A stretch of 64,000 nt of DNA from an uncultured Gammaproteobacteria bacterium (GTDB lineage Bacteria; Pseudomonadota; Gammaproteobacteria; Pseudomonadales; JAHEGP01), in assembly GCA_963808975.1 (NCBI GenBank), contig CAWEHR010000001.1, positions 229,908 to 293,907 of the forward strand, in the 5' to 3' direction. Each line of letters opens with the position of its first letter. Positions within the stretch are counted from its first letter, which is position 1. The notes beneath the pieces were generated by a model. That model did no database searches. It saw nothing but the letters and a program-made list of their open reading frames with translations, and was not told the DNA's origin. A program made the translations under genes and the position numbers. This document shows, piece by piece, positions 4,827-58,704 of this stretch.

Positions 4827-4914
4827 AATAGCTATTCCGCTTGCTGTCCTGCTTTTTTCAGGATCCACCAGGGCCGTTGAAATATGTCGCTAACCGCCGA
4901 CACTGCTACGTTAG

Positions 4915-5889
4915 ATGAAAGCTAATCGCCAGTCAAAAGCCTGGCATTTTATCGGCGCCGGCGCGCTGGGCTGCCTGTGGATCCACCACTGCCGCGCAGG
5001 CGGCCTGGACCTGACCCTGCTGCTGCGCAATGAACAACGCCTGGCGCAGTTCAAGCGAGCCGGCGGGGTGGCGCTGGCGCAAAATGGCGGGACTGACCTA
5101 CAAAACTGCGTCGCCCGAACGATGGAGCAAGCAGCGGCGCTGCAACCGCCCCAGTCTGTTCGGCAGCTCATACTCTGTTGTAAGGCCCAGCAGACTGCCG
5201 CGGCTTTCGCTGCGATTGCCACACTGCTGGCAAACGATGCGACTGTGCTGTTGTTGCAAAACGGGATGGGTGTCGCCGAGGAGCTGCTCGCTGCCCGGCC
5301 CGGGCTCAGGCTCTTCTGCGGTGTGAGTACCGACGGCGCTCACCTGGTTGCGCCCTTCACCGTTCAACGGGCCGGAGTCGGTAACACACGAATCGGGCTG
5401 TTTCCCGAAGAGCCGACCCTGGTGGCAAGTCGTAAACTGTGTGGCCAGTTGGATGTGCCCGGACTGACCCTGGAGCCCTGCGCCGACATAAGGCTGGCCC
5501 AATGGCAAAAATTGGCGGTGAATGCGGTGATCAACCCGCTGACGGCGCTGTACGACATTACTAATGGCGCTGTACTCACCAGCGCGGAACCCAGCGCATT
5601 GATAGCGCCACTGTGTGCCGAAATTGCCCGGGTCGCTGCCGCTGAAGGCGTCGCGCTGGATGCGGGGTCGATCAGGAGCGACGTGTATCGCGTATGCCAA
5701 CTGACCCGTGCAAACATCTCCTCGATGTTGCAGGATACTCGCCAGAACCGTGACACTGAGCTGGATTACATCAACGGCTACCTCCTGGGCCGGGCCGCTG
5801 AACACCGAATCGATATGCCGATCAACCGGCAGCTGATTGACAGGCTCAGGGCGCATCGACCACCACCACGCTCTGCCCCCAGCGCCTGA
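4915..5889 (+). CDS. panE: 2-dehydropantoate 2-reductase (ketopantoate reductase)
   Basis: N-terminal Rossmann motif IGAGALGC, then LLQNGMG, and a C-terminal block SSMLQDTRQNRDTELDYINGYLL typical of the ApbA/PanE family. Confidence 0.8.
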   Translation: MKANRQSKAWHFIGAGALGCLWIHHCRAGGLDLTLLLRNEQRLAQFKRAGGVALAQNGGTDLQNCVARTMEQAAALQPPQSVRQLILCCKAQQTAAAFAAIATLLANDATVLLLQNGMGVAEELLAARPGLRLFCGVSTDGAHLVAPFTVQRAGVGNTRIGLFPEEPTLVASRKLCGQLDVPGLTLEPCADIRLAQWQKLAVNAVINPLTALYDITNGAVLTSAEPSALIAPLCAEIARVAAAEGVALDAGSIRSDVYRVCQLTRANISSMLQDTRQNRDTELDYINGYLLGRAAEHRIDMPINRQLIDRLRAHRPPPRSAPSA

Positions 5890-6019
5890 TCTGCCGCTGA
5901 CACTGACGCGATAATCCTTGCCAAAAGCAAGCATATTCTCTAGTATCCGCCGCCTCGCATAAGGTTATCGCTTGTTGCCAGGCGATCAACGGCCCTTTTT
6001 CCAACGCCACAGTTGGGCG

Positions 6020-6195
6020 TAAATAAGGTGCCAAGGGAAGTCGGTGCGCCACCAGGCAATTCCGACGCTGCCCCCGCAACGGTAGGTGAGTCAAGGCACG
6101 TCTCAAAGCCACTGTATCGCAACGCCGATATGGGAAGGCGACTGCCCCGACAGACACAATGTCACTCACAAGCCCGGAGACCGACCCGTGCGTTC
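6020..6195 (+). promoter_or_regulatory. cobalamin (B12) riboswitch in the btuB leader
   Basis: Conserved core elements read directly: GGTGCCAAGGGAAGTCGGTG, AATTCCGAC, GCTGCCCCCGCAACGGTA, GCCACTG, GGGAAGGC, and the B12 box AAGCCCGGAGACCGACC. A GC hairpin at 6209-6238 (GGGCGGT...ACCGCCC) lies before the start codon as a plausible expression platform. Confidence 0.8.
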
Positions 6196-6304
6196 CACAA
6201 GGCTGCGGCGGGCGGTCGAGTTGGCGCACCAACCGCCCTCTCACTCCCTCTGCAGTCCTCGAAGCCACGTCGGTACTCGGGCGGAGTATCCAGGGAGAGC
6301 CAAC

Positions 6305-8275
6305 ATGCCAATGCGCCGTGCGCCTTTTTGTTCCTGTCTTGTCATTTTCTTCAGTAGCCCGCAATTCGCCGGCGCAGCCAGCGCCGAAGAGGGCGAGCAG
6401 GCTCCGGAAGTCATGGTGGTCACCGCATCACGCAACCCGCTGCCGTTGCAGGACGTCACCGGATCAGTATCGGTGTTTGGTGACGCCGACATCGACAACC
6501 GCAAACCGCTGGTGGTGGCGGACATTCTGCGCAGCTCACCCGGTGTCGCCATCAACCGCGCCGGCGGGTTTGGCAGCTTTACCCAGGCCCGTATTCGTGG
6601 TGCCGAGGCCAATCATGTTCTGGTTTTGATCGACGGCGTGGAGGCGAATGACGTCGGCATCGGCAGCGAATTCAACTTTGCCAACGTGCTAGCCCAGGAT
6701 ATCCAGCAGATCGAAGTACTGCGGGGCCCGCAGAGCTCGCTCTGGGGCAGCGGCGCTGTGGCGGGAGTCATCAGTATTACCACGGCCCAGACCGAGCGGC
6801 CTTTCGTTGCCGGGGGCTACCTGGAGGGCGGCTCCTTCGAGACCTACAGTGCCGGCCTGAACCTGGGCGGGGCGGGAGAAAGATTCAACTACCGTATCAG
6901 TGCCGACTTTGCCGACAGCGAGGGCGAAAATATCGCCACCGAGGGAAGCGAAAAAGACGGCTATACCAACAAGACCCTCAATATCCGTGCCGGCTATGAA
7001 TTCACCGACAACCTTGACATCCGCGGCAGTTACCGCCGCACCGAGGCAGACCGGGATTTCGACGGTACCAGCTTCATCACTGGCTTGCCTGAAGACGCAG
7101 ACAAGAAAACCGAAGGCACATTCGACTACGCGGGATTGACCGCAAGCCTTGCGTCTTTTGACCGTAGCTGGGTCAACACCCTGGGCATCACCTACAACAA
7201 ATCCGTCAGCGAAAATATCAGCGAAGGACTGCTCGATACGGGCACCGAGGGAACCAAGACACGCAGCTATTGGCAGTCCACCTGGATGCCGGGGGGTGAC
7301 GATAACAACCGGCTGACAATGGTGCTCGAGCAGACCCGGGAAACGTTCCGACAATCTGCCACTGATACCAGTTTTGGTGATCCCAACCGCGACCTGTCGC
7401 AAACCAATCGCGCCCTGGTGGGTGAATACCTGCATGCCTGGAACAGCCCCTGGCGCCTGTCGCTCAGCGCCCGCCACGACGCCAACGAAGACTTCGAGGA
7501 TGCCAACACCTACCGCGCGGGAATCCTCTACGACCAACTGCAACAGCAGGGCTGGCAGCTTCGCGCATCCTACGGTACCGGCGTCAAGAACCCCACCTTT
7601 GTCGAACGCTACGGCTACTACGAGGTGGGTGGACCGGCCTTCGTCGGCAACCCGAACCTGAAACCGGAGAAGTCCCGCAGCTGGGAACTGGGCACCACCT
7701 TGAAGACCCGCAACGATTTCATGCAGTTGGATTTCACCTATTTCAACGAGCGCCTGGAGGATGAGATCAACGGTTTTTATTTCGATCCCTCCGTGGGCGA
7801 TGCGGGCGCCAACACCGCTGTCAACCTTGACGGCACCAGTAAACGGGACGGAATCGAGACCGCCGCCCGCTTTATTTTTAGCGAGGATCTCTCCCTCTAC
7901 CTCGCCTATACCTACCTCGACGCTTACCAGCCCGAGGTCGCTGGCAGCGCAGACCAGGAAATACGCAGGCCCCGCAATATCGCCAGCGGCAACCTCAACT
8001 ATCTATTTTTCAATCAACGCGGCAAGTTGAATATCAATGTCGACTACAACGGCAAGCAGGAGGATATTTTCTTTGGTCCGCCAACCTTCAACCAGCGGGT
8101 GACGCTGGATGCCTACACCCTTGTAGGTGCAATGCTTTCATACCGTGTGCTCGACAGCCTCGAAGTGTATGCCCGGGGCGAAAACCTGCTGGGCAAGGAG
8201 TACCAGGAGGTTTTCGGTTTCGACGGCCAGGGGCGCGCGGGTTACCTCGGCATCCGCGCCAATTGGTCGTTGTAG
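6305..8275 (+). CDS. btuB: TonB-dependent vitamin B12 / cobalamin outer-membrane receptor
   Basis: Start taken at MPMRRAPFCSCLVIFFSSPQFAGAASA (signal peptide), 73 codons into ORF 6086..8275. TonB-box-like EVMVVTASR, plug motifs IEVLRGPQSSLWGSGAVAGVISI, and a beta-barrel C-terminus. Sits directly downstream of the B12 riboswitch. Confidence 0.8.
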   Translation: MPMRRAPFCSCLVIFFSSPQFAGAASAEEGEQAPEVMVVTASRNPLPLQDVTGSVSVFGDADIDNRKPLVVADILRSSPGVAINRAGGFGSFTQARIRGAEANHVLVLIDGVEANDVGIGSEFNFANVLAQDIQQIEVLRGPQSSLWGSGAVAGVISITTAQTERPFVAGGYLEGGSFETYSAGLNLGGAGERFNYRISADFADSEGENIATEGSEKDGYTNKTLNIRAGYEFTDNLDIRGSYRRTEADRDFDGTSFITGLPEDADKKTEGTFDYAGLTASLASFDRSWVNTLGITYNKSVSENISEGLLDTGTEGTKTRSYWQSTWMPGGDDNNRLTMVLEQTRETFRQSATDTSFGDPNRDLSQTNRALVGEYLHAWNSPWRLSLSARHDANEDFEDANTYRAGILYDQLQQQGWQLRASYGTGVKNPTFVERYGYYEVGGPAFVGNPNLKPEKSRSWELGTTLKTRNDFMQLDFTYFNERLEDEINGFYFDPSVGDAGANTAVNLDGTSKRDGIETAARFIFSEDLSLYLAYTYLDAYQPEVAGSADQEIRRPRNIASGNLNYLFFNQRGKLNINVDYNGKQEDIFFGPPTFNQRVTLDAYTLVGAMLSYRVLDSLEVYARGENLLGKEYQEVFGFDGQGRAGYLGIRANWSL

Positions 8276-8415
8276 GCTAACTGGGACAGGATTTGACACA
8301 CCGCCTCATGAATCGTTTTCAGCGGCGGGTTACACTAGCCATAGGAGAGCTACCCTCTTCGTGGGAGTGATACTGCGCGCGCCAGGCAGCGCAACAAAAA
8401 TCAGGATATCAGGTC

Positions 8416-8979
8416 ATGGGAAACAGGCTCAGCAAGATCTATACAAGGACCGGGGACGACGGCACCACCGGATTGGGCGACGGCTCGAGGATTACCAAGA
8501 ACGCGCAACGCATGATCGTCATCGGAGCCGTTGATGAACTCAATTGCCTGCTGGGAATGTTGCGCTGCGAACTGCCGGCCAACGATCCATTCGACGAGCA
8601 GTTGAGCGCCATCCAACATGACTTGTTTGACCTCGGCGGCGAACTTTCCATCCCCGGCTACATCATGTTGACCGCGGCCCGCATCGACTGGCTGGAGCAG
8701 TGCCTGGATGATATCAACGCCGACCTGCCACCACTGAAGAACTTTATCCTGCCGGGGGGCAACAGGGCCGGTGCCTGCTGCCATCTCGCCCGCGCCGTCT
8801 GCCGCCGCGCGGAGCGCGACATGGTTGCCCTGATGCAGGACTCCCAGGTAAACGAATGCGGTAACCGCTACCTGAACCGGCTGTCGGACCTGCTCTTTGT
8901 GATGGCTCGCTCACTGGTCAGGCGCGATGGCGGCAAGGAAGTGTTATGGCAGCAGAGTGAGGGTCATACGGTTCCATAA
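8416..8979 (+). CDS. ATP:cob(I)alamin adenosyltransferase, PduO/MMAB type
   Basis: The N-terminus KIYTRTGDDGTTGL plus DELN, LQHDLFDLGGEL, FILPGG, HLARAVCRRAER and NRLSDLLF are hallmark PduO-type motifs. Confidence 0.85.
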   Translation: MGNRLSKIYTRTGDDGTTGLGDGSRITKNAQRMIVIGAVDELNCLLGMLRCELPANDPFDEQLSAIQHDLFDLGGELSIPGYIMLTAARIDWLEQCLDDINADLPPLKNFILPGGNRAGACCHLARAVCRRAERDMVALMQDSQVNECGNRYLNRLSDLLFVMARSLVRRDGGKEVLWQQSEGHTVP

Positions 8980-9297
8980 ACATCATATTTCACAGCTCTC
9001 TGCCAGGCCAACACAGAGAAGCTGCTGATGGAGTCCCGCGAGGCCAATGCCCCTGACCGCGAGCGCCTGCAATAGCTGCGCACCGAAATAGGGGCCCAGC
9101 GGGACGACTTCGATGCGGGTACCGCGCAGGGAATTGCTGATGAAATCGGCCGGATCACCGGGCGCATGGTGTATCGGGCCAGTGAAACCTGGCCCCAGGT
9201 GTACCAGCTATTGGACGCCGAACAGCGGGCCGACTTGGACGCCATGATGGTGAAACGCGATACGCATCGCGGCAGGTGGCACAAGTACGGCGAGTGA
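8980..9297 (+). pseudogene. possible remnant of a CpxP/Spy-like periplasmic protein (3' fragment with an in-frame TAG)
   Basis: Frame 1 reads ...EKLLMESREANAPDRERLQ*LRTEIGAQRDDFDAGTAQGIADEIGRITGRMVYRASETWPQVYQLLDAEQRADLDAMMVKRDTHRGRWHKYGE*. The LLDAEQRADLDAMM style resembles the C-terminal helix of CpxP/Spy/ZraP proteins. There is no start codon or signal peptide, and a stop lies at 9073-9075. Confidence 0.3.
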
Positions 9298-29748: not shown

Positions 29749-30798
29749 TCAATCAGCATTACCGGGATGTTTATCTTTTTGCGACCTGCCTCCGCTTTGC
29801 CGAAAGTTACCGGGGCTGGCACCCGTCCAGCTTTTGAAGGCACGGCTGAAGGCGCTTTGATCGGAAAAGCCCAGCAGTAGAGGTAACTCAGAGAGCCGGA
29901 GTGATGTACGCAATAAATAACGCTGCGCCAGTTCCTCCCTTACGCTATCCAGCAACGCCTGGTAGGAAAGGTTGTAGTGCTGGAGTTTACGTTGTACCGA
30001 CCGCGGTGAGCAGTGTAATTCCCTTGCGACCTGGGGCAGCGTGGTGCTGCCTTCCGGTATACCCTTGAGCAAGACATGCTGCAGGCGCAGGAGGAAGGGG
30101 TCTTCTATTCGAATCACGTTGGAGAAGGCTTCCTGTTGCTGGCACCGCATGGAATGAAAATCCCCGGGTGGCAGCCCGGGTGCGGCCTTGTAAACGGTAG
30201 CGGCGTTGAAACTTACACCCGGACTGGTGGACTCGAAGCTGACGGGGCAGGCAAAAAAGTCTTCGTAAATAGCGATATCATCCGGCGCGGTGCCGGTAAG
30301 GGACACCGCCACCAACTCGCAACCGTCGGGGAAGCGCTTGCGCAGGAAGGTCACCAGGGTACTCAGTGCAACCTGCACGAAAAGGGCGTTGTCATCCCCC
30401 AACGGGTCGGGCCAGGACAGCGTCCATGCTGTATCGGTACACAGGAGCCGCGCAAAGCTCACACCGTAGAAGTGGCGCTCACAGAGTAGATACGTTTCCA
30501 GGGCGTCGGCCAGCGACTCGCTGTTGAGCACCAGGTAGCCAAGCACACCAGTGTATGCCACCTGGACCTCGGCACCAATCTGGATACCGACGGGCTGCCC
30601 CGGTGCCAGAGCTGCGGCTTCGCCGAGCAGGGTGCGCCACTCTTCCACGCTGATCGCGTCCCTCCTGGCCAGTAAGCCCAGCCGGGTGCCCAGCTCAGGG
30701 CACTCGATTCCGTGGCGGATAATCCAGGCTTGAAGTGTTTGCGTGAAGCTTCCTGCAACTCGAATCATGACATCCAGCCTCAAGGCATCCCTGATCAA
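29749..30798 (-). CDS. AraC-family transcriptional regulator
   Basis: C-terminal double HTH (LPQVARELHCSPRSVQRKL ... GFSDQSAFSRAFKSWTGASP) with an N-terminal ligand-binding-type domain. Confidence 0.8.
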   Translation of the reverse strand: MIRDALRLDVMIRVAGSFTQTLQAWIIRHGIECPELGTRLGLLARRDAISVEEWRTLLGEAAALAPGQPVGIQIGAEVQVAYTGVLGYLVLNSESLADALETYLLCERHFYGVSFARLLCTDTAWTLSWPDPLGDDNALFVQVALSTLVTFLRKRFPDGCELVAVSLTGTAPDDIAIYEDFFACPVSFESTSPGVSFNAATVYKAAPGLPPGDFHSMRCQQQEAFSNVIRIEDPFLLRLQHVLLKGIPEGSTTLPQVARELHCSPRSVQRKLQHYNLSYQALLDSVREELAQRYLLRTSLRLSELPLLLGFSDQSAFSRAFKSWTGASPGNFRQSGGRSQKDKHPGNAD

Positions 30799-30850: not shown

Positions 30851-31837
30851 ATGGCGCAGTATGTCAATCTTTGTTTCGTCCATGGCCCTATTCTGGTTAC
30901 ATGGTTTCTACCGGGAGTGGTGATCATGCTGTCCCTGTTTGACGCTACCAGCCAACTCAGCGCCATTGACCCCAAACAATGGCTGCTATTTGTCCTGTTT
31001 CCGGTTTTTCTGTTGGTAGCGGCCCTGGAGGCACTGCATTTTAGGGGCAAAGCGATTTATGCACTCAGGGACAGCGCCGCCAGCATGGCGCTCGGGGCAA
31101 GTTACCTGATTCTTGAACTGATACTGTATGCACTTTTTGTCTGGGCAATCTTCGACTGGGTCTACCAGTTTCGGCAGATGACCATCGAAATGAATCCACT
31201 GCGCTTCCTCGCCCTCTACCTGGCCGTGGATTTCCTCTTCTATGTCTACCATCGCACTGCCCACCGCGTGCGCTGGTTCTGGGCCAGCCACTGCGTCCAT
31301 CACGCCTCGGAACACATGAATTTCACCACCGCGATGCGTCAGAGCGCATTGTATCCCCTCGCCTTTGTCTGGGCCTTTTTCCTGCCACTGAGCCTGTGCG
31401 GCTTCGACAAGGAGTGGATTTTCTCTGCCCTGGCGCTGAACCTGGCCTACCAGTATTTCCTCCATACACAGTGGATCGACAAGCTGCACCCGGCGATTGA
31501 ATGGCTGTTCAACACGCCCTCGCACCACCGGGTCCATCATGGGAGGAACAAGCGCTACATCGACCGCAACTACGGTGGCACACTGATTGTTTTCGATCGC
31601 ATCCTGGGAACGTTCACGGAAGAAGATCCCCACGAGCGGCCGGACTATGGCATCACCCGGCAGGTTTACAGTTACAACCCGGTGTGGCTGACCTTACACG
31701 AGTGGGTAGACATGTTCCGGGACATGGCACGGCCAGGCCCCCTGCGCGCGCGATTGAAGCATCTTTGGATGCCGCCAGACTGGCAGCGTAATCCGTCATT
31801 GTTGGAGAGAAAAAGGACAGAACATGAGACACCATGA
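30851..31837 (+). CDS. fatty-acid hydroxylase / sterol desaturase superfamily membrane di-iron enzyme (alkylglycerol-monooxygenase-like)
   Basis: Histidine boxes HRTAHRV, HCVHHAS and HHRVHHG in a polytopic protein. An alternative start lies at 30926 (MLSLFD). Confidence 0.75.
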   Translation: MAQYVNLCFVHGPILVTWFLPGVVIMLSLFDATSQLSAIDPKQWLLFVLFPVFLLVAALEALHFRGKAIYALRDSAASMALGASYLILELILYALFVWAIFDWVYQFRQMTIEMNPLRFLALYLAVDFLFYVYHRTAHRVRWFWASHCVHHASEHMNFTTAMRQSALYPLAFVWAFFLPLSLCGFDKEWIFSALALNLAYQYFLHTQWIDKLHPAIEWLFNTPSHHRVHHGRNKRYIDRNYGGTLIVFDRILGTFTEEDPHERPDYGITRQVYSYNPVWLTLHEWVDMFRDMARPGPLRARLKHLWMPPDWQRNPSLLERKRTEHETP

Positions 31838-53598: not shown

Positions 53599-54174
53599 AT
53601 GACGGTTTCGCTGCAGCACATTGAGCTGGCGCTGGCGACTCGCCAACCCCGCAGGCAATCCCTCAGGCGCTTGTTCAAGCGCGCCGCCGTCGCCCTGATT
53701 CTGCGTGAGGTGGATGGCGCTGCCGAAATACTGATGATTCGCCGCTCCCACAGCCAGGGCGACCCGTGGTCCGGCGATATGGCCTTCCCGGGGGGGCTTC
53801 TCGATACGGCCGACCGCCACGGACTCGATGCCGCCTGCCGGGAAACCGCCGAGGAAATCGGCCTGGAACTGGCACCGGACTTCTGCATCGGACGGCTGTC
53901 GGAGCTGACGGTGCCATTGCTGCCGGGCCGCCGGGGGCTGGTGGTCACGCCCTACCTGTTTCGGCTCGACCAGGAGGTAAGACTGGAGGGCAACAACGAG
54001 GTCGCCGAAATCGTCTGGGTACCGCTGGCGTTTCTCCAGGACCCCGCCAATCGTGAAAAGCTCATCTGGGGCAAACGCGGTATCGGCATTCCCATGCCCT
54101 GCTACCGCTACCAGGGTCGACCGATATGGGGCTTGTCGCTGCGCATGCTGCGGGAACTCATCACCCTGCTGTAG
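53599..54174 (+). CDS. NUDIX hydrolase, CoA pyrophosphatase (NudL-like)
   Basis: Start MTVSLQHIEL within ORF 53323..54174. Nudix box FPGGLLDTADRHGLDAACRETAEEIGL preceded by the CoA-type context ILMIRRS. Confidence 0.7.
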   Translation: MTVSLQHIELALATRQPRRQSLRRLFKRAAVALILREVDGAAEILMIRRSHSQGDPWSGDMAFPGGLLDTADRHGLDAACRETAEEIGLELAPDFCIGRLSELTVPLLPGRRGLVVTPYLFRLDQEVRLEGNNEVAEIVWVPLAFLQDPANREKLIWGKRGIGIPMPCYRYQGRPIWGLSLRMLRELITLL

Positions 54175-54263
54175 GACCGGACTCGCCCAAATTGGGCACG
54201 GCTACGGTCTGAGATTGCCGATACTCGGTCGGCAAAAGTAGCGAGGCAAGCGCCGCTATGGAC

Positions 54264-54905
54264 TCACCAACGCAACAGCGACGGCAGTAAAAAGCGCCCT
54301 ATCAACGCTCCCGCAAGCACCGGCGCGACATGCCAGATACCCAGGTGCACCACGCTATCAGCCGTACATGCCAGACCATAGGCGGCCGAACCCAGCGCGG
54401 TTGATGCAACACCGATATACAGGCCCGCCGTAGCGGGCGAAACCGGTGCGCCGCGGCGCAGCCAAAGGACCAATGCCGCTGCACACAGTAAGGAAGCTGC
54501 CAGACCAGCGCCAAAACAGCTCAGGCCATGGTGGTCGATGATGGACGCCAGGCCACGATCGCGCCCAAACAAAGCGACAAACGCCGCGAGCGGCAGCACA
54601 GCAACCATCGCCATCGCCCATTTCGGGCCGTCATGGCTATTGCCAACACCCGGGCAGGCCATTTTGAGAACACTATTGGTACTGGCGCTGCCAAGGATCA
54701 GCAGCAATCCGCTGGTGACCACAAAAAAAGCCGAGGCTTGCCCGGTCCAGGCACCACGCCACAGGCCGCTGAGCAGTTCGACGGCCAGCATTGTAATGAG
54801 CATGGCCAAACTGACAAGTACAAGACCATCGCGGTACTTGATTGAACGCACCGGTTGCAACTCTGCTGCCATCTGTTCGATTAAAGGATTAGGGGCCCGC
54901 TTCAT
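54264..54905 (-). CDS. nrsF: NrsF-like (DUF1109) membrane anti-sigma factor
   Basis: 213 aa with six predicted TM segments. N-terminal LIEQMAAELQPVR is typical of DUF1109. Starts 2 nt after the ECF sigma stop. Confidence 0.7.
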   Translation of the reverse strand: MKRAPNPLIEQMAAELQPVRSIKYRDGLVLVSLAMLITMLAVELLSGLWRGAWTGQASAFFVVTSGLLLILGSASTNSVLKMACPGVGNSHDGPKWAMAMVAVLPLAAFVALFGRDRGLASIIDHHGLSCFGAGLAASLLCAAALVLWLRRGAPVSPATAGLYIGVASTALGSAAYGLACTADSVVHLGIWHVAPVLAGALIGRFLLPSLLRW

Positions 54906-54907
54906 TA

Positions 54908-55438
54908 CTATTCTGCCTTTTCAACCAGTGTGGAGAGGTTTTTCAACCCGCGATGAATATTCACTTTGACAGCAGCCTCTGTCTGTCCGCTTTTTGCAGC
55001 GGCTTCCCGTATGGAAAGCCCCGCTATTTTGACCAGTTCAATTGCTTGTGCCTGTTTGTCGGGAATCTGGCCGAACATTCGATCCAGGCTAAGACGGGCC
55101 ATGATGGCCTCTTCATCACTGTCCTGAGTTGCATCGTGATCTGCCAGAGCATCTTCCGCATTGCGGTAAACGACACGTAGATGGTCAACCCAGCGGTAGC
55201 GCGCGATGGCAGCAAGCCAGGGCAGAAAGGGCCGCGTTGGGTCGTAGCTGGCGCGCTTGTTATGCACCGCTACCAGCACCTCCTGCACCAGATCGTCAAT
55301 CTGGCTCGGTGCGCAGCGGCGGCGGAAAAAGCGCTCCAGCCACAACTGCACCTCAGTGAGGAGTACCGTGTAGGCCTGCTTGTCGCCTTTCTGCGAACAG
55401 GCCATCAGGCGAGCTAAGGTTGGTTCATCTGCAATCAC
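54908..55438 (-). CDS. ECF RNA polymerase sigma factor (SigF-type by context)
   Basis: Region 2 (DLVQEVLVAVHNKRASYDPTRPFLPWLAAIARYRWVDHLR) and region 4 HTH (LVKIAGLSIREAAAKSGQTEAAVKVNIHRGLKNL). Confidence 0.85.
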   Translation of the reverse strand: MIADEPTLARLMACSQKGDKQAYTVLLTEVQLWLERFFRRRCAPSQIDDLVQEVLVAVHNKRASYDPTRPFLPWLAAIARYRWVDHLRVVYRNAEDALADHDATQDSDEEAIMARLSLDRMFGQIPDKQAQAIELVKIAGLSIREAAAKSGQTEAAVKVNIHRGLKNLSTLVEKAE

Positions 55439-55450
55439 AGTCCTTTCCCG

Positions 55451-55915
55451 CTATTTTACGCCCCGGCGCAACAGGCTTAACAGCGCGTCGACAGAAAAGG
55501 TACCGGCCCCGCGAGAGATCAAGATCAACGACATCGCCGCCCATAAACTGTGTGCTGCCCACCATGCATCAGGGTATACAAAAATCTGGATTGTCATTGT
55601 CATGAAAAACAGAGACAAGGCCGAAAAGCGCGTCGCAAAACCCAGAACCAACAGGATCGGGAAAACATGCTCAGCATAGGTCGCCAAATACATCGATAGC
55701 TCGGTCGGCAGCGGCACCGCACTGTATTCCTCCTGAAACAGGTAGCGCGTAGTGCCGCTAGGCTCCAGCCAACTGCCTTCCACCACTTTGGTCCGACCGG
55801 AGCGCCAAAACACACCGGCCAGCGCAAAGCGCGTGAGCAGCAGCGCAACGCTTTCAAAAGCGCGGCCCGACAGGATACCACTTAGCCGGTCGTACTGTTC
55901 GCTCAACCACTGCAT
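55451..55915 (-). CDS. DoxX-family membrane protein
   Basis: 154 aa with four TM segments. LLLTRFALAGVFWRSGRTK and SRGAGTFSVDALL are DoxX motifs. Confidence 0.8.
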   Translation of the reverse strand: MQWLSEQYDRLSGILSGRAFESVALLLTRFALAGVFWRSGRTKVVEGSWLEPSGTTRYLFQEEYSAVPLPTELSMYLATYAEHVFPILLVLGFATRFSALSLFFMTMTIQIFVYPDAWWAAHSLWAAMSLILISRGAGTFSVDALLSLLRRGVK

Positions 55916-55944
55916 ATTACGGACTCCTTATCGGCCTGGCAGTA

Positions 55945-56229
55945 TCAGCGCTTAATCGGCTCCAGCGAGCCCTTGCCTTTGGGAGTCTCAATGCTTTCAC
56001 AGCTACCCTTTTCGACCAGTTTCCAGGCATCACCTTGATAATCGCGGGTGGACGTTCCAGCGCAGCTCGTGCCCGGTCCAGCGGCGCAATCGTTGCCACC
56101 GGCCTTGGCCACGCCATAGCATTTTTCCATGGCGTCGCTTTGCGCAAGGGCCGGCGTGATGCTAAGACCAGCCGATATACCGGCTGCAAGTGCGAATCCG
56201 GCTATTTTTCCGATGTTGTTCCTGGTCAT
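55945..56229 (-). CDS. DUF2282-family Cys-containing secreted peptide (bufferin BufA1-type RiPP precursor)
   Basis: Start [29 protein letters not shown] (Sec signal, AxA site) with AGGAG upstream. Core [44 protein letters not shown] carries the four DUF2282 cysteines. Confidence 0.8.
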
Positions 56230-56289
56230 CTGTAATCTCCTGAAAAAAGAAAGGTAATGGGTCATTCCAGTGAATGGTGCCCTAAGTAG

Positions 56290-56315
56290 TTCGTCAGTCA
56301 GCGGTGATTGGTTAC
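56290..56315 (-). promoter_or_regulatory. candidate SigF-type ECF promoter for the DUF2282-doxX-sigma-nrsF operon
   Basis: The minus strand reads GTAACC-(16 nt: AATCACCGCTGACTGA)-CGAA, about 60 nt upstream of the 56229 start codon. Confidence 0.55.
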
Positions 56316-56349
56316 ACACACACGGAAAATAAATTTTTGCGATGATGTT

Positions 56350-56375
56350 GTAACTTTTGTTTGCGCCGCAGCGAA
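56350..56375 (+). promoter_or_regulatory. candidate SigF-type ECF promoter for the 6-Cys precursor-DUF692-DUF2063 operon
   Basis: The plus strand reads GTAACT-(16 nt: TTTGTTTGCGCCGCAG)-CGAA, about 62 nt upstream of the 56438 start codon. Confidence 0.55.
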
Positions 56376-56437
56376 TACCCTTGTGTCCAGACCGGGCATC
56401 ACATTTACGTGACAAACACCAAGAAGAGGAAAAACTC

Positions 56438-56719
56438 ATGAGCAAGCTATCTAATTTCGCCGCGACCGCCGCCGCCCTGGCACTGAGCTCTGCTGCAGTA
56501 TTTGCCGCAGATGCGCCCGCAGGAAGCAGTGGCCAGGCCTTGAACAGCGAAGACACTGTCCATTGCTATGGCCTGCACGACTGCAAAGGCAATGCAGACT
56601 GCGCAACTACCCAGAACGCCTGCAAGGGCAAAAACGCCTGCAAAGGCCACGGATTCAAAGCAATGGAAGCCGGCGCGTGCCTGACCAAGGGCGGCACCAT
56701 CGGTGACATTGGCCAATAA
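56438..56719 (+). CDS. 6-Cys CKG-repeat secreted peptide (bufferin BufA2 / BUF_6/12Cys-type RiPP precursor)
   Basis: ATG preceded by [30 protein letters not shown] signal peptide. Core [40 protein letters not shown] has six Cys in Cxx / CKG spacing. Confidence 0.75.
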
Positions 56720-56739
56720 ATGAAACCTGTAACCGCAAC

Positions 56740-56895
56740 GGCACTTAACTTAACGCCACTACAGCGATTTGCGCAGCCCCGGTGTGTTCGATCTGCGGGC
56801 GTCTGCGGCAGGGAAGCCGCAGTCGAGCCTCCAGGGACGGATTCACGGCGTACCGCGGATCGAACACACCGGATACAGCCGTTTAAGTAAGTGCC
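56740..56895 (+). other. long imperfect hairpin between the precursor and DUF692 genes
   Basis: Outer arms GGCACTTAACTTAA / TTTAAGTAAGTGCC. Inner 15-bp perfect arms CCGGTGTGTTCGATC (56779-56793) / GATCGAACACACCGG (56858-56872), extendable to 18 bp with one G-U pair. Apical sub-hairpin CTGCGGC-AGGGAA-GCCGCAG. A further 7-bp hairpin lies at 56913-56932. Confidence 0.55.
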
Positions 56896-56986
56896 ATTAC
56901 CTCTAACCAGCCGACTGTGTGAGCGCACAGTCGACCCCGACCCGCGCTTACACAGTACCGGGCCGCACTATTTTTTTGGAGCCATT

Positions 56987-57826
56987 ATGAGCAACATCGA
57001 TCCGTTTTCTGGCTTCGGCCTTGGCCTTCGGCGGGATCACTACAAGGATTTCCTGGAAGGTGAGGTGCCGGTCGATTTTGTTGAGGTGATATCCGAAAAC
57101 TATATGGTCGATGGCGGCAGGCCGTTGCGTGTTCTCGAGCAGGTCCGCGCAAAAATCCCGGTGATCCTGCATGGGGTCTCCATGTCGATCGGGTCCGCTG
57201 ACGGGCTAAACCCGGACTATCTGGCAAAGCTCAAAGCCCTCGCGGAGCGAATCGAGCCGCTGTGGGTTTCCGACCACCTATGTTGGACCGGCACCAGCGC
57301 CCACAACAGCCATGACCTGCTGCCCCTGCCGTATACACTCGAGGCGCTCGATATAGTGTGCGACAACATTGACCTGGCGCAGGAGACCCTGGGCCGGCCC
57401 CTGTTATTCGAAAACCCCTCAAGTTACATGACTTTTCCCGATGACGAGATGAGCGAATGGGAGTTTATATCCCACATGGCGCAGCGCAGTGGCTGTTACC
57501 TGTTGCTAGACATCAACAATGTTTTTGTCAGTGCGCATAATCATGGGTTTGCGGCCGAGGATTATCTCGCCGGCTTACCGCTGGACCACGTGCGGCAAAT
57601 CCACCTCGCGGGTCACACCGATGGCATAATCAAAATCGACACACATGACCAGCCGGTCTGCGAGGGCGTATGGCAGCTTTATGCCAAGGCCCGCGGCATG
57701 CTGCCTGCCAGCGTGGCGACCATGATCGAGCGCGACGATGACATCCCGCTGCTGCCCGCACTCCTCGATGAGCTGGAACTGGCGCGCCAGTACATCCCGT
57801 GTCAACAACAGTCGGGAGTCGCCTGA
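56987..57826 (+). CDS. DUF692-family multinuclear non-heme iron oxidative enzyme (MNIO; BufB/MbnB-like)
   Basis: Start MSNIDPFSGFGLGLRRDHY. FVEVISENYM, ILHGVSMSIGS, VSDHLCW, LFENPSSY, LLLDINNVFVSAHNHG and IHLAGH are the conserved TIM-barrel metal-binding blocks of DUF692. Confidence 0.9.
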   Translation: MSNIDPFSGFGLGLRRDHYKDFLEGEVPVDFVEVISENYMVDGGRPLRVLEQVRAKIPVILHGVSMSIGSADGLNPDYLAKLKALAERIEPLWVSDHLCWTGTSAHNSHDLLPLPYTLEALDIVCDNIDLAQETLGRPLLFENPSSYMTFPDDEMSEWEFISHMAQRSGCYLLLDINNVFVSAHNHGFAAEDYLAGLPLDHVRQIHLAGHTDGIIKIDTHDQPVCEGVWQLYAKARGMLPASVATMIERDDDIPLLPALLDELELARQYIPCQQQSGVA

Positions 57827-58605
57827 TGGTCAACACAACGCTGAGCGCACATCAGCAGGAATTTCTGGCACATATGCTGGACCATGAGCGCACGCTGCCG
57901 GGGGGTTGGAATGCGCGCCACGCTGCCGGCATGGACATCTATCGCAATGCCTATCGCGCCCGGCTGGTCGATGCCTTGCGCGATACTTACGAATGCACCG
58001 CGCGCTGGGTTGGCGAGGACGCTTTCCAGCAGTCGGCGGCGCATCATGTCATTACCCATCCACCCAACAGCTGGACCCTGGATGATGTGGGTCAGGCGTT
58101 TCCCGATACCCTGCGCGAGTTGTTCGCGGGCGACCCCGAAGTCGCCGAGCTTGGCTGGCTTGAATGGGCAATGCATCGGTGTTTTGTGGCTGCTGATACA
58201 GCCCCGATCGATGCCGCGGGTTTTCGGGCGGCCACAGCGTCGTTTGAAGAGCACGACTGGGCCACCATGCGCCTGACCTTTCTCCCTGGAACGTATCAGG
58301 CGCCTATCTCGCATGATATCGGCACGCTCTGGAAGGCCCTGAAGCAGGGAACGTCGGCGAGCCCAGACTACTCGGCAAAAACACCGCTGTATTGTGTCGT
58401 GTGGCGAGAGGAACTGAAACCGGTCTTCACCCAGGTCGATGCGGCTGAAGGAAAGGCACTTGCCACCCTGCTTGGTGGCGCAAGTTATGGCGAGGCCTGC
58501 AATGCCCTGATTGACCTTCTGGGGGAAGAAGCAGCAGTCACCCAGGCCGGCGCCATGCTGGGCCGCTGGCTGCACCACGGCATGATAGCTGGCGTCTCAA
58601 AGTAA
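57826..58605 (+). CDS. DUF2063-family partner protein (BufC/MbnC-like)
   Basis: The ATG overlaps the DUF692 TGA by 1 nt (TGATG). The N-terminal QQEFLAHMLD...GMDIYRNAYRARLVDALRDTY pattern is typical of DUF2063. Confidence 0.8.
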   Translation: MVNTTLSAHQQEFLAHMLDHERTLPGGWNARHAAGMDIYRNAYRARLVDALRDTYECTARWVGEDAFQQSAAHHVITHPPNSWTLDDVGQAFPDTLRELFAGDPEVAELGWLEWAMHRCFVAADTAPIDAAGFRAATASFEEHDWATMRLTFLPGTYQAPISHDIGTLWKALKQGTSASPDYSAKTPLYCVVWREELKPVFTQVDAAEGKALATLLGGASYGEACNALIDLLGEEAAVTQAGAMLGRWLHHGMIAGVSK

Positions 58606-58704
58606 CAGCTTCTGATGCACGCCAGCCTTGCGTGTGCGATAGCGGGCCGCCGTGCGGCCTTCAGCTTGCATTCGTGGGCGACTCGGTTTCGGGTCAGCTT
58701 ATGT

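Follow-up and report, generated by a model that had tools for sequence, protein, structure and literature searches.

Divergent ECF16 (SigF-type) promoters very probably control a mixed two-precursor bufferin cluster in a marine gammaproteobacterium

The SigF-NrsF regulon of Caulobacter crescentus/vibrioides comprises sigF-nrsF (CC3253-CC3252), the divergently oriented CC3254-CC3257 (buf1ABCD), and CC2907-CC2905 (buf2). The sequence bound by SigF, GTAACC-N16-CGAA, was established by 5'RACE on CC3254 and CC2907 and by lacZ fusions that require sigF and the -35 element for activity (Kohler et al. 2012, PMC3511200). For the ECF16 group of sigma factors, the consensus is quoted as (T/C)GTAAC-N17-CGAA, and the 5'RACE-mapped ECF16 promoter of Brucella reads TGTAAC/GCGAAA (PMC8315932). 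The Brucella anti-sigma factor is a six-helix DUF1109 protein in which two cysteines, C129 and C179, are conserved (PMC8315932). Bufferin clusters of the Buf1/DUF2282 and Buf2/6-Cys kinds share a core of precursor, MNIO, DUF2063 and DoxX genes as well as sigma/NrsF control (PMC11626156, PMC12452194), and the 2025 bufferin survey places the sigma/NrsF genes in Buf1 clusters, not in Buf2 clusters. The presence of ECF16/SigF promoters at bufferin loci is already known, and the locus described here is a further example with modest local variations.

The locus is part of the window, by which we mean the whole stretch of 64,000 nucleotides that was analysed, and consists of two operons that diverge from a non-coding region of 208 bp (56230-56437) between their start codons. 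The minus-strand operon begins with the gene for a DUF2282 bufferin precursor (55945-56229; Pfam PF10048, 85.8 bits), the core of which is 75% identical to Caulobacter CC3254, followed by genes for a BufD-like DoxX membrane protein (55451-55915; Pfam DoxX, 63 bits; 47% identical to the Caulobacter buf1 DoxX), a SigF/ECF16-like ECF sigma factor with Sigma70_r2 and r4_2 domains (54908-55438), and an NrsF/DUF1109 anti-sigma factor (54264-54905; Pfam PF06532). The gaps between these four genes are 29, 12 and 2 nt, such that nrsF starts 2 nt beyond the sigma stop codon, and no terminator-like site was found at the operon gene junctions. The plus-strand operon begins with the gene for a 6-Cys precursor (56438-56719; NCBIfam NF050166, 96.4 against a cut-off of 60; no Pfam match) and continues with genes for an MNIO maturase, BufB (56987-57826; Pfam PF05114, 345 bits; NCBIfam MNIO_BufB, 360.7 against a cut-off of 310), and a BufC-like DUF2063 partner (57799-58605, with the start at either 57799 or ~57826; Pfam PF09836, 72 bits). 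In the nomenclature of NCBIfam and the bufferin literature, the DUF2282 precursor belongs to the BufA1 type and the 6-Cys precursor to the BufA2 type. The bufferin cluster core, i.e., precursors, MNIO (BufB), DUF2063 (BufC) and DoxX, is present, with Pfam matches of DUF2282, DUF2063 and DoxX above the cut-offs.

In contrast to the surveyed clusters, the window has a Buf2-type operon and a Buf1 precursor-sigma-NrsF operon on either side of one bidirectional control region, which in effect makes the locus a mixed cluster of two precursors and a single maturase pair. The operon of the BufA1-type precursor (55945-56229, minus strand) includes neither an MNIO nor a DUF2063 gene, and the sole local pair resides in the BufA2-type operon (56987-58605, plus strand); judging from gene content, a single maturase pair may serve two precursor classes. 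The spacer between the BufA2-type precursor and MNIO genes contains a sub-threshold match to Rfam Ysr224 (56796-56893, minus strand; 25.9 against 70 bits), which was taken as chance. A second MNIO cluster is located on contig C8 at ~91.3-93.4 kb and encodes a signal-peptide precursor with EGKCG repeats (oxazolin-type), an MNIO that is 38% identical to that of the window, and a DUF2063/NGO1945_C protein. No ECF16 box was found upstream of this cluster, which by motif therefore falls outside the regulon considered here.

The control region contains two outward-facing motifs, the letters and coordinates of which were all exact in the original prediction when the sequence was re-read. On the plus strand, GTAACT (56350-56355) is followed after 16 nt by CGAA (56372-56375), and on the minus strand GTAACC (56315-56310) is followed after 16 nt by CGAA (56293-56290). 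Both are preceded by a T, giving TGTAAC...GCGAA on the plus strand and TGTAAC...ACGAA on the minus strand, and both read TGTAAC-N17-CGAA, in agreement with the ECF16 consensus, each pointing at a target operon. For the BufA2-type precursor/MNIO/DUF2063 operon, we assign TGTAACT (56349-56355), which fits the ECF16 (T/C)GTAAC, as the predicted -35 element, and CGAA (56372-56375; GCGAA with the preceding G), N17 after GTAAC, as the predicted -10 element. The corresponding predicted elements of the DUF2282-DoxX-sigma-NrsF operon are TGTAACC (56310-56316), of the same kind as the Caulobacter CC3254 promoter, and CGAA (56290-56293). The -35 boxes are 34 bp apart. The distance from motif to start codon, put at about 60 nt by the original prediction, measures 60 nt from CGAA to the DUF2282 ATG at 56229 and 62 nt to that of the 6-Cys precursor, and a Shine-Dalgarno-like AGGAG/GAGGA is present at each of the two precursor ATGs. 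No sigma-70-like promoter was found in the 208-bp region, and no additional box with at most one mismatch in 54200-58700, sigma gene included. We consider it very probable that the two motifs represent divergent promoters, with TGTAAC as the -35 and CGAA as the -10 element, that are read by the locally encoded ECF16 (SigF-type) sigma factor. The observations behind this assignment are the sequence itself, the protein families, the N17 spacing, the conservation of the boxes across bacterial classes, and the match to the mapped arrangement in Caulobacter.

For comparison, the Caulobacter vibrioides locus was retrieved by means of a RACE primer from the supplement of PMC3511200. It contains GTAACC-N16-CGAA at 6290-6315 on the minus strand, upstream of a DUF2282-MNIO-DUF2063-DoxX operon, and again at 6380-6405 on the plus strand, upstream of sigF-nrsF; the consensus that the original prediction had given for SigF is indeed the published one. 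The two loci thus have in common the motif, an outward-facing pair of boxes in one divergent region, the DUF2282, MNIO/DUF692, DUF2063, DoxX, ECF sigma and NrsF families, both NrsF cysteines, and a small regulon. They differ in that the sigma and nrsF genes of the window stand at the end of the DUF2282-DoxX operon and lack a separate promoter, whereas Caulobacter sigF-nrsF is a divergent unit in its own right. Furthermore, the other promoter of the window drives a BufA2-type precursor and the only local MNIO/DUF2063 genes, while Caulobacter buf2 is found elsewhere on the chromosome, and the -35 boxes are separated by 34 bp in the window compared with 64 bp in Caulobacter. The CGAA-to-ATG distance of 60 nt in Caulobacter was measured in the type strain and the published start at -61 stems from CB15/NA1000, which precludes an exact calibration of the start site. 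The bcrXQP promoter of Brucella melitensis BcrS/AbcS (ECF16), with -35 TGTAAC and -10 GCGAAA (PMC8315932), is likewise similar to the boxes of the window; however, in Brucella the sigma factor targets a methionine-rich protein and MsrPQ (hypochlorite defence) rather than bufferins, and the motif scan of the present genome showed no msrPQ-type target carrying a box.

Shuffles of the window gave an expectation of 0.06 motif matches against the 3 present, but the real genome was taken as the fairer null. The 4.25 Mb assembly contains 13 exact matches to GTAACY-N16-CGAA, with control spacings of N10-N22 giving 5-22, and 29 matches to GTAACN-N16-CGAA, nearly all of which are within long ORFs. The motif alone is weak evidence, as N16 is not enriched genome-wide, and the assignment therefore rests on context and conservation. 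The proposal to define the regulon by scanning the genome for the motif did not hold up for the same reason: N16 is no commoner than other spacings, and the matches are mostly inside ORFs. Low information content and lack of genome-wide enrichment would also suit the notion that the two matches in the control region are functionless chance occurrences. However, at a rate of ~12 per 8.5 Mb of strand, an estimated ~6e-4 matches are expected per 208 bp on both strands, compared with the two that are present in correct orientation and position, 34 bp apart in one intergenic region beside a sigma/NrsF pair. Moreover, both boxes are kept in 41 of 44 related loci in which the spacers are not, and this conservation refutes chance, to which we assign practically no probability; the original prediction was right to regard coincidence as unlikely.

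Further matches in the genome include C1:315448(+) and C8:131936(-). The former (C1:315448-315473) is an exact GTAACC-N16-CGAA, apparently intergenic and 56 nt upstream of a 459-aa ORF (MQKLNFQDASFLRAEV...). The T and G that usually flank the conserved boxes are missing here, and the match is possibly an extra regulon member, possibly chance. An intergenic-looking match at C8:97577 was rejected as a regulon member, since it overlaps a start codon. The third copy in the window, an exact TGTAACC-N16-CGAA at 30875-30900 on the minus strand, lies directly upstream of a sigma-70-like TTGACA-N17-TATACT promoter of an AraC-type regulator gene (29749-30798), and overlaps the annotated start of a divergent fatty-acid-hydroxylase ORF. 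It was rejected as a functional box on the grounds that 6 of 10 core positions are changed in the congener G003, a weak test given that G003 lacks the sigma factor, and on sequence comparison this copy is probably due to chance.

Using the sigma protein as query, 80 related loci were collected, some in Halieaceae-like gammaproteobacteria, with identities of up to 93%, and others in alphaproteobacteria of the Erythrobacteraceae and Sphingopyxis, with identities of 57-83%. Going by its closest named relatives, the host itself seems to be a Halieaceae-like gammaproteobacterium. The divergent architecture is common to 44 of these, and in 41 of the 44 both boxes are exact; in other gene orders (e.g., Sphingopyxis), DUF2282-MNIO-DUF2063 and DoxX-sigma-NrsF each have a box in front. 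When spacing was left unimposed in the 44 regions (20 kb), GTAAC and CGAA were separated by N17 in 85 of 86 pairs and by N18 once, with no other spacing within 10-25. Among positions that were not imposed in the 41 loci, the T before GTAAC carries 1.6 bits and the G before CGAA ~1 bit, compared with ~0.1-0.3 bits for the 16-nt spacers. When the complete intergenic regions of eight gamma- and alphaproteobacterial loci were aligned with MAFFT without anchoring, the invariant columns were essentially TTCG, GTTACA, GTAAC and CGAA. The comparative data show that both boxes are under strong selection. By contrast, the CGAA-to-ATG distance varies across loci, from ~42 to 99 nt, and it is because of this wide variation that the shared 60 nt of the window and Caulobacter is regarded as coincidental.

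The two -35 boxes of the window form an inverted repeat (GGTTAC...GTAAC) with a conserved A/T tract in between, and could as such be taken for half-sites of an operator for a dimeric transcription factor. A fixed dimer site is, however, incompatible with the distances among relatives, where -35 boxes are 23 to 118 bp apart from GTAAC to GTAAC, while the distance from GTAAC to CGAA is fixed at N17. In addition, single boxes stand alone before single operons in the other gene orders, and the identical motif has been mapped by 5'RACE as a promoter in both Caulobacter and Brucella. An operator of this kind is extremely unlikely, and the variable box-to-box distance points to two independent promoters.

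The sixth position of the plus-strand box is a T where GTAACC has a C, which raises the question of whether one box alone is active, the plus-strand GTAACT or one of the sides being decayed or very weak. Position 6 lies outside the ECF16 group consensus, and its conservation depends on the side, with C carrying 1.6 bits on the DUF2282 side compared with a weak 0.8 bits on the MNIO side, where C, G and T alternate freely in 41 loci with an otherwise intact box. In the unanchored alignment neither box varies, and there is no alternative promoter-like site for the plus-strand operon. We therefore consider a single working box to be very improbable, and both boxes are best described as promoters.

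Over its full length, the sigma factor of the window shares 39% identity with Caulobacter SigF (E = 4e-35), and is the sole tblastn match of SigF in this genome. Among the NCBIfam models, PRK12539 (150.7 against 171) and PRK12536 (147.7 against 250) remained below cut-off, and the ECF superfamily model alone passed. NrsF is the single PF06532 protein of the genome and covers model positions 2-204 of 204 (122.1 bits against a cut-off of 26.8), but fails the NCBIfam equivalog AntiSigF_NrsF (NF042994) with 25.3 bits against a cut-off of 300. Its cysteines C130 and C180 align with C131 and C181 of Caulobacter NrsF, which have been functionally tested (PMC3511200), and these cysteines are invariant across Caulobacter and three other loci. 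A crude hydropathy scan of NrsF returned five clear segments and a Gly/Ala-rich sixth (~residues 158-178) below threshold. By these comparisons, sigma and NrsF of the window appear to be family members rather than close orthologues of the Caulobacter proteins. The 39% identity, the sub-cut-off sigma models, the failed NrsF equivalog and the T at position 6 of the plus-strand box were counted against the SigF-type reading.

Sigma factors of related ECF groups can share -35 elements of the GTAAC/AAC type. This, together with the 29 matches to GTAACN-N16-CGAA across the genome, would be compatible with ECF-type promoters that are read by a different sigma factor than the adjacent one. Against this, the genome has one NrsF and one SigF-like sigma, the remaining genome matches are almost all inside ORFs, and the boxes co-occur with this particular sigma in the 80 loci from two classes, moving with it as a cassette. 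Recognition by another sigma factor is accordingly very unlikely. The promoter interpretation of the original prediction, in which the adjacent sigma factor reads both boxes, is supported by the ECF sigma and Pfam NrsF neighbours, the published consensus and the conserved boxes.

Besides the boxes, two elements of the control region stand out. An A/T tract of 13 nt, AAAATAAATTTTT (56326-56338), is positioned midway between the -35 boxes, 11 nt from both, which puts it at about -43 to -58 relative to each predicted start, a distance suited to an UP element. At 68% AT, the segment between the boxes contrasts with a genome of 58% GC, and 29 of 41 loci have an inter-box 12-mer of at least 83% AT (background 0.26%); the tract may be a shared UP-like element. 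The second element is TGTCC (56384-56388, plus strand), 8 nt after CGAA and near the predicted transcript start of the BufA2 operon. All 10 BufA2-side promoters compared (gamma and alpha loci) have it unchanged, whereas it is missing on the DUF2282 side and in the sigF and CC3254 promoters of Caulobacter. RNAalifold gave no consensus pairs that would indicate a conserved RNA structure in the BufA2 5'UTR. The box-to-box gaps cluster at 23-24, 32-34, 44-47, 56, 65-70, 80, 89-91 and 103-106 bp. Helical phasing of the two promoters was considered and set aside: the best period is ~11.6 bp, not 10.5, and the p-value of ~0.005 (unique values) is untrustworthy as the loci are related.

The distribution of the sigma factor (E <= 1e-30) is sporadic: one of six congeners has it, 19 other families of the order yielded no copy, and copies that are ~80% identical occur in the alphaproteobacterial Erythrobacteraceae. 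Synteny with the congener G003 extends up to both edges of the cassette (window positions 54174 and 58705), and the cassette itself (54264-58605) fills a variable slot flanked by a NUDIX gene on one side and a lipase-like gene on the other. In G003 (C1:64000-78000, locus 4829-8997), the slot holds NmrA/DUF2867, a hypothetical gene, and an IS110-family transposase. The cassette is thus accessory and probably horizontally exchanged, and its distribution suggests horizontal transfer between classes; a module with its own sigma factor, anti-sigma factor and promoters is well suited to such exchange.

On the model of SigF/NrsF in Caulobacter, NrsF, a membrane protein of probably six helices, would keep the sigma factor at the membrane in the unstressed cell. 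A periplasmic or envelope signal, i.e., copper, another thiol-reactive metal or an oxidant, would act via the two NrsF cysteines to release sigma, which together with RNA polymerase would fire both promoters. The plus-strand promoter, with a predicted start at ~56381-56385, would then yield the BufA2-type precursor, the MNIO maturase and the DUF2063 partner, and the minus-strand promoter, with a predicted start at ~56280-56284, the DUF2282 precursor, DoxX, sigma and NrsF. In this scheme we infer the start sites, the dependence on sigma, the inducing signal and the co-transcription of the four minus-strand genes. With sigma and NrsF on the minus-strand transcript, the circuit would amount to positive autoregulation with a built-in brake. 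Autoregulation of sigma through the DUF2282 promoter, as the original prediction had it, fits the anatomy of the operon with its short gaps and lack of a terminator or another box, and is likely because no separate box precedes the sigma gene, which lies 12 nt behind doxX. It was counted against this scheme that a sole DUF2282-side promoter would not account for basal sigma expression.

A broader and more tentative proposal, which we rate as possible but rather doubtful, is that the locus represents a self-contained, horizontally mobile two-bufferin cassette, in which one MNIO/DUF2063 pair serves both the BufA2-type and the BufA1-type precursor under bidirectional ECF16 control, with a shared UP-like tract, promoters that are perhaps coupled via the box spacing, and TGTCC at the BufA2-side start. 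No new kind of regulation is revealed by the present analysis. What it provides is a confident regulatory annotation that places both bufferin (copper-peptide) operons and the sigma/anti-sigma pair in one small stress regulon, from which one would predict that copper, or envelope stress of a similar kind, induces this regulon in a marine gammaproteobacterium. Furthermore, the ECF16 sigma factor, anti-sigma factor, promoters and targets appear to move as a portable unit between bacterial classes, which helps to explain why the promoter motif is uniform across distant hosts.
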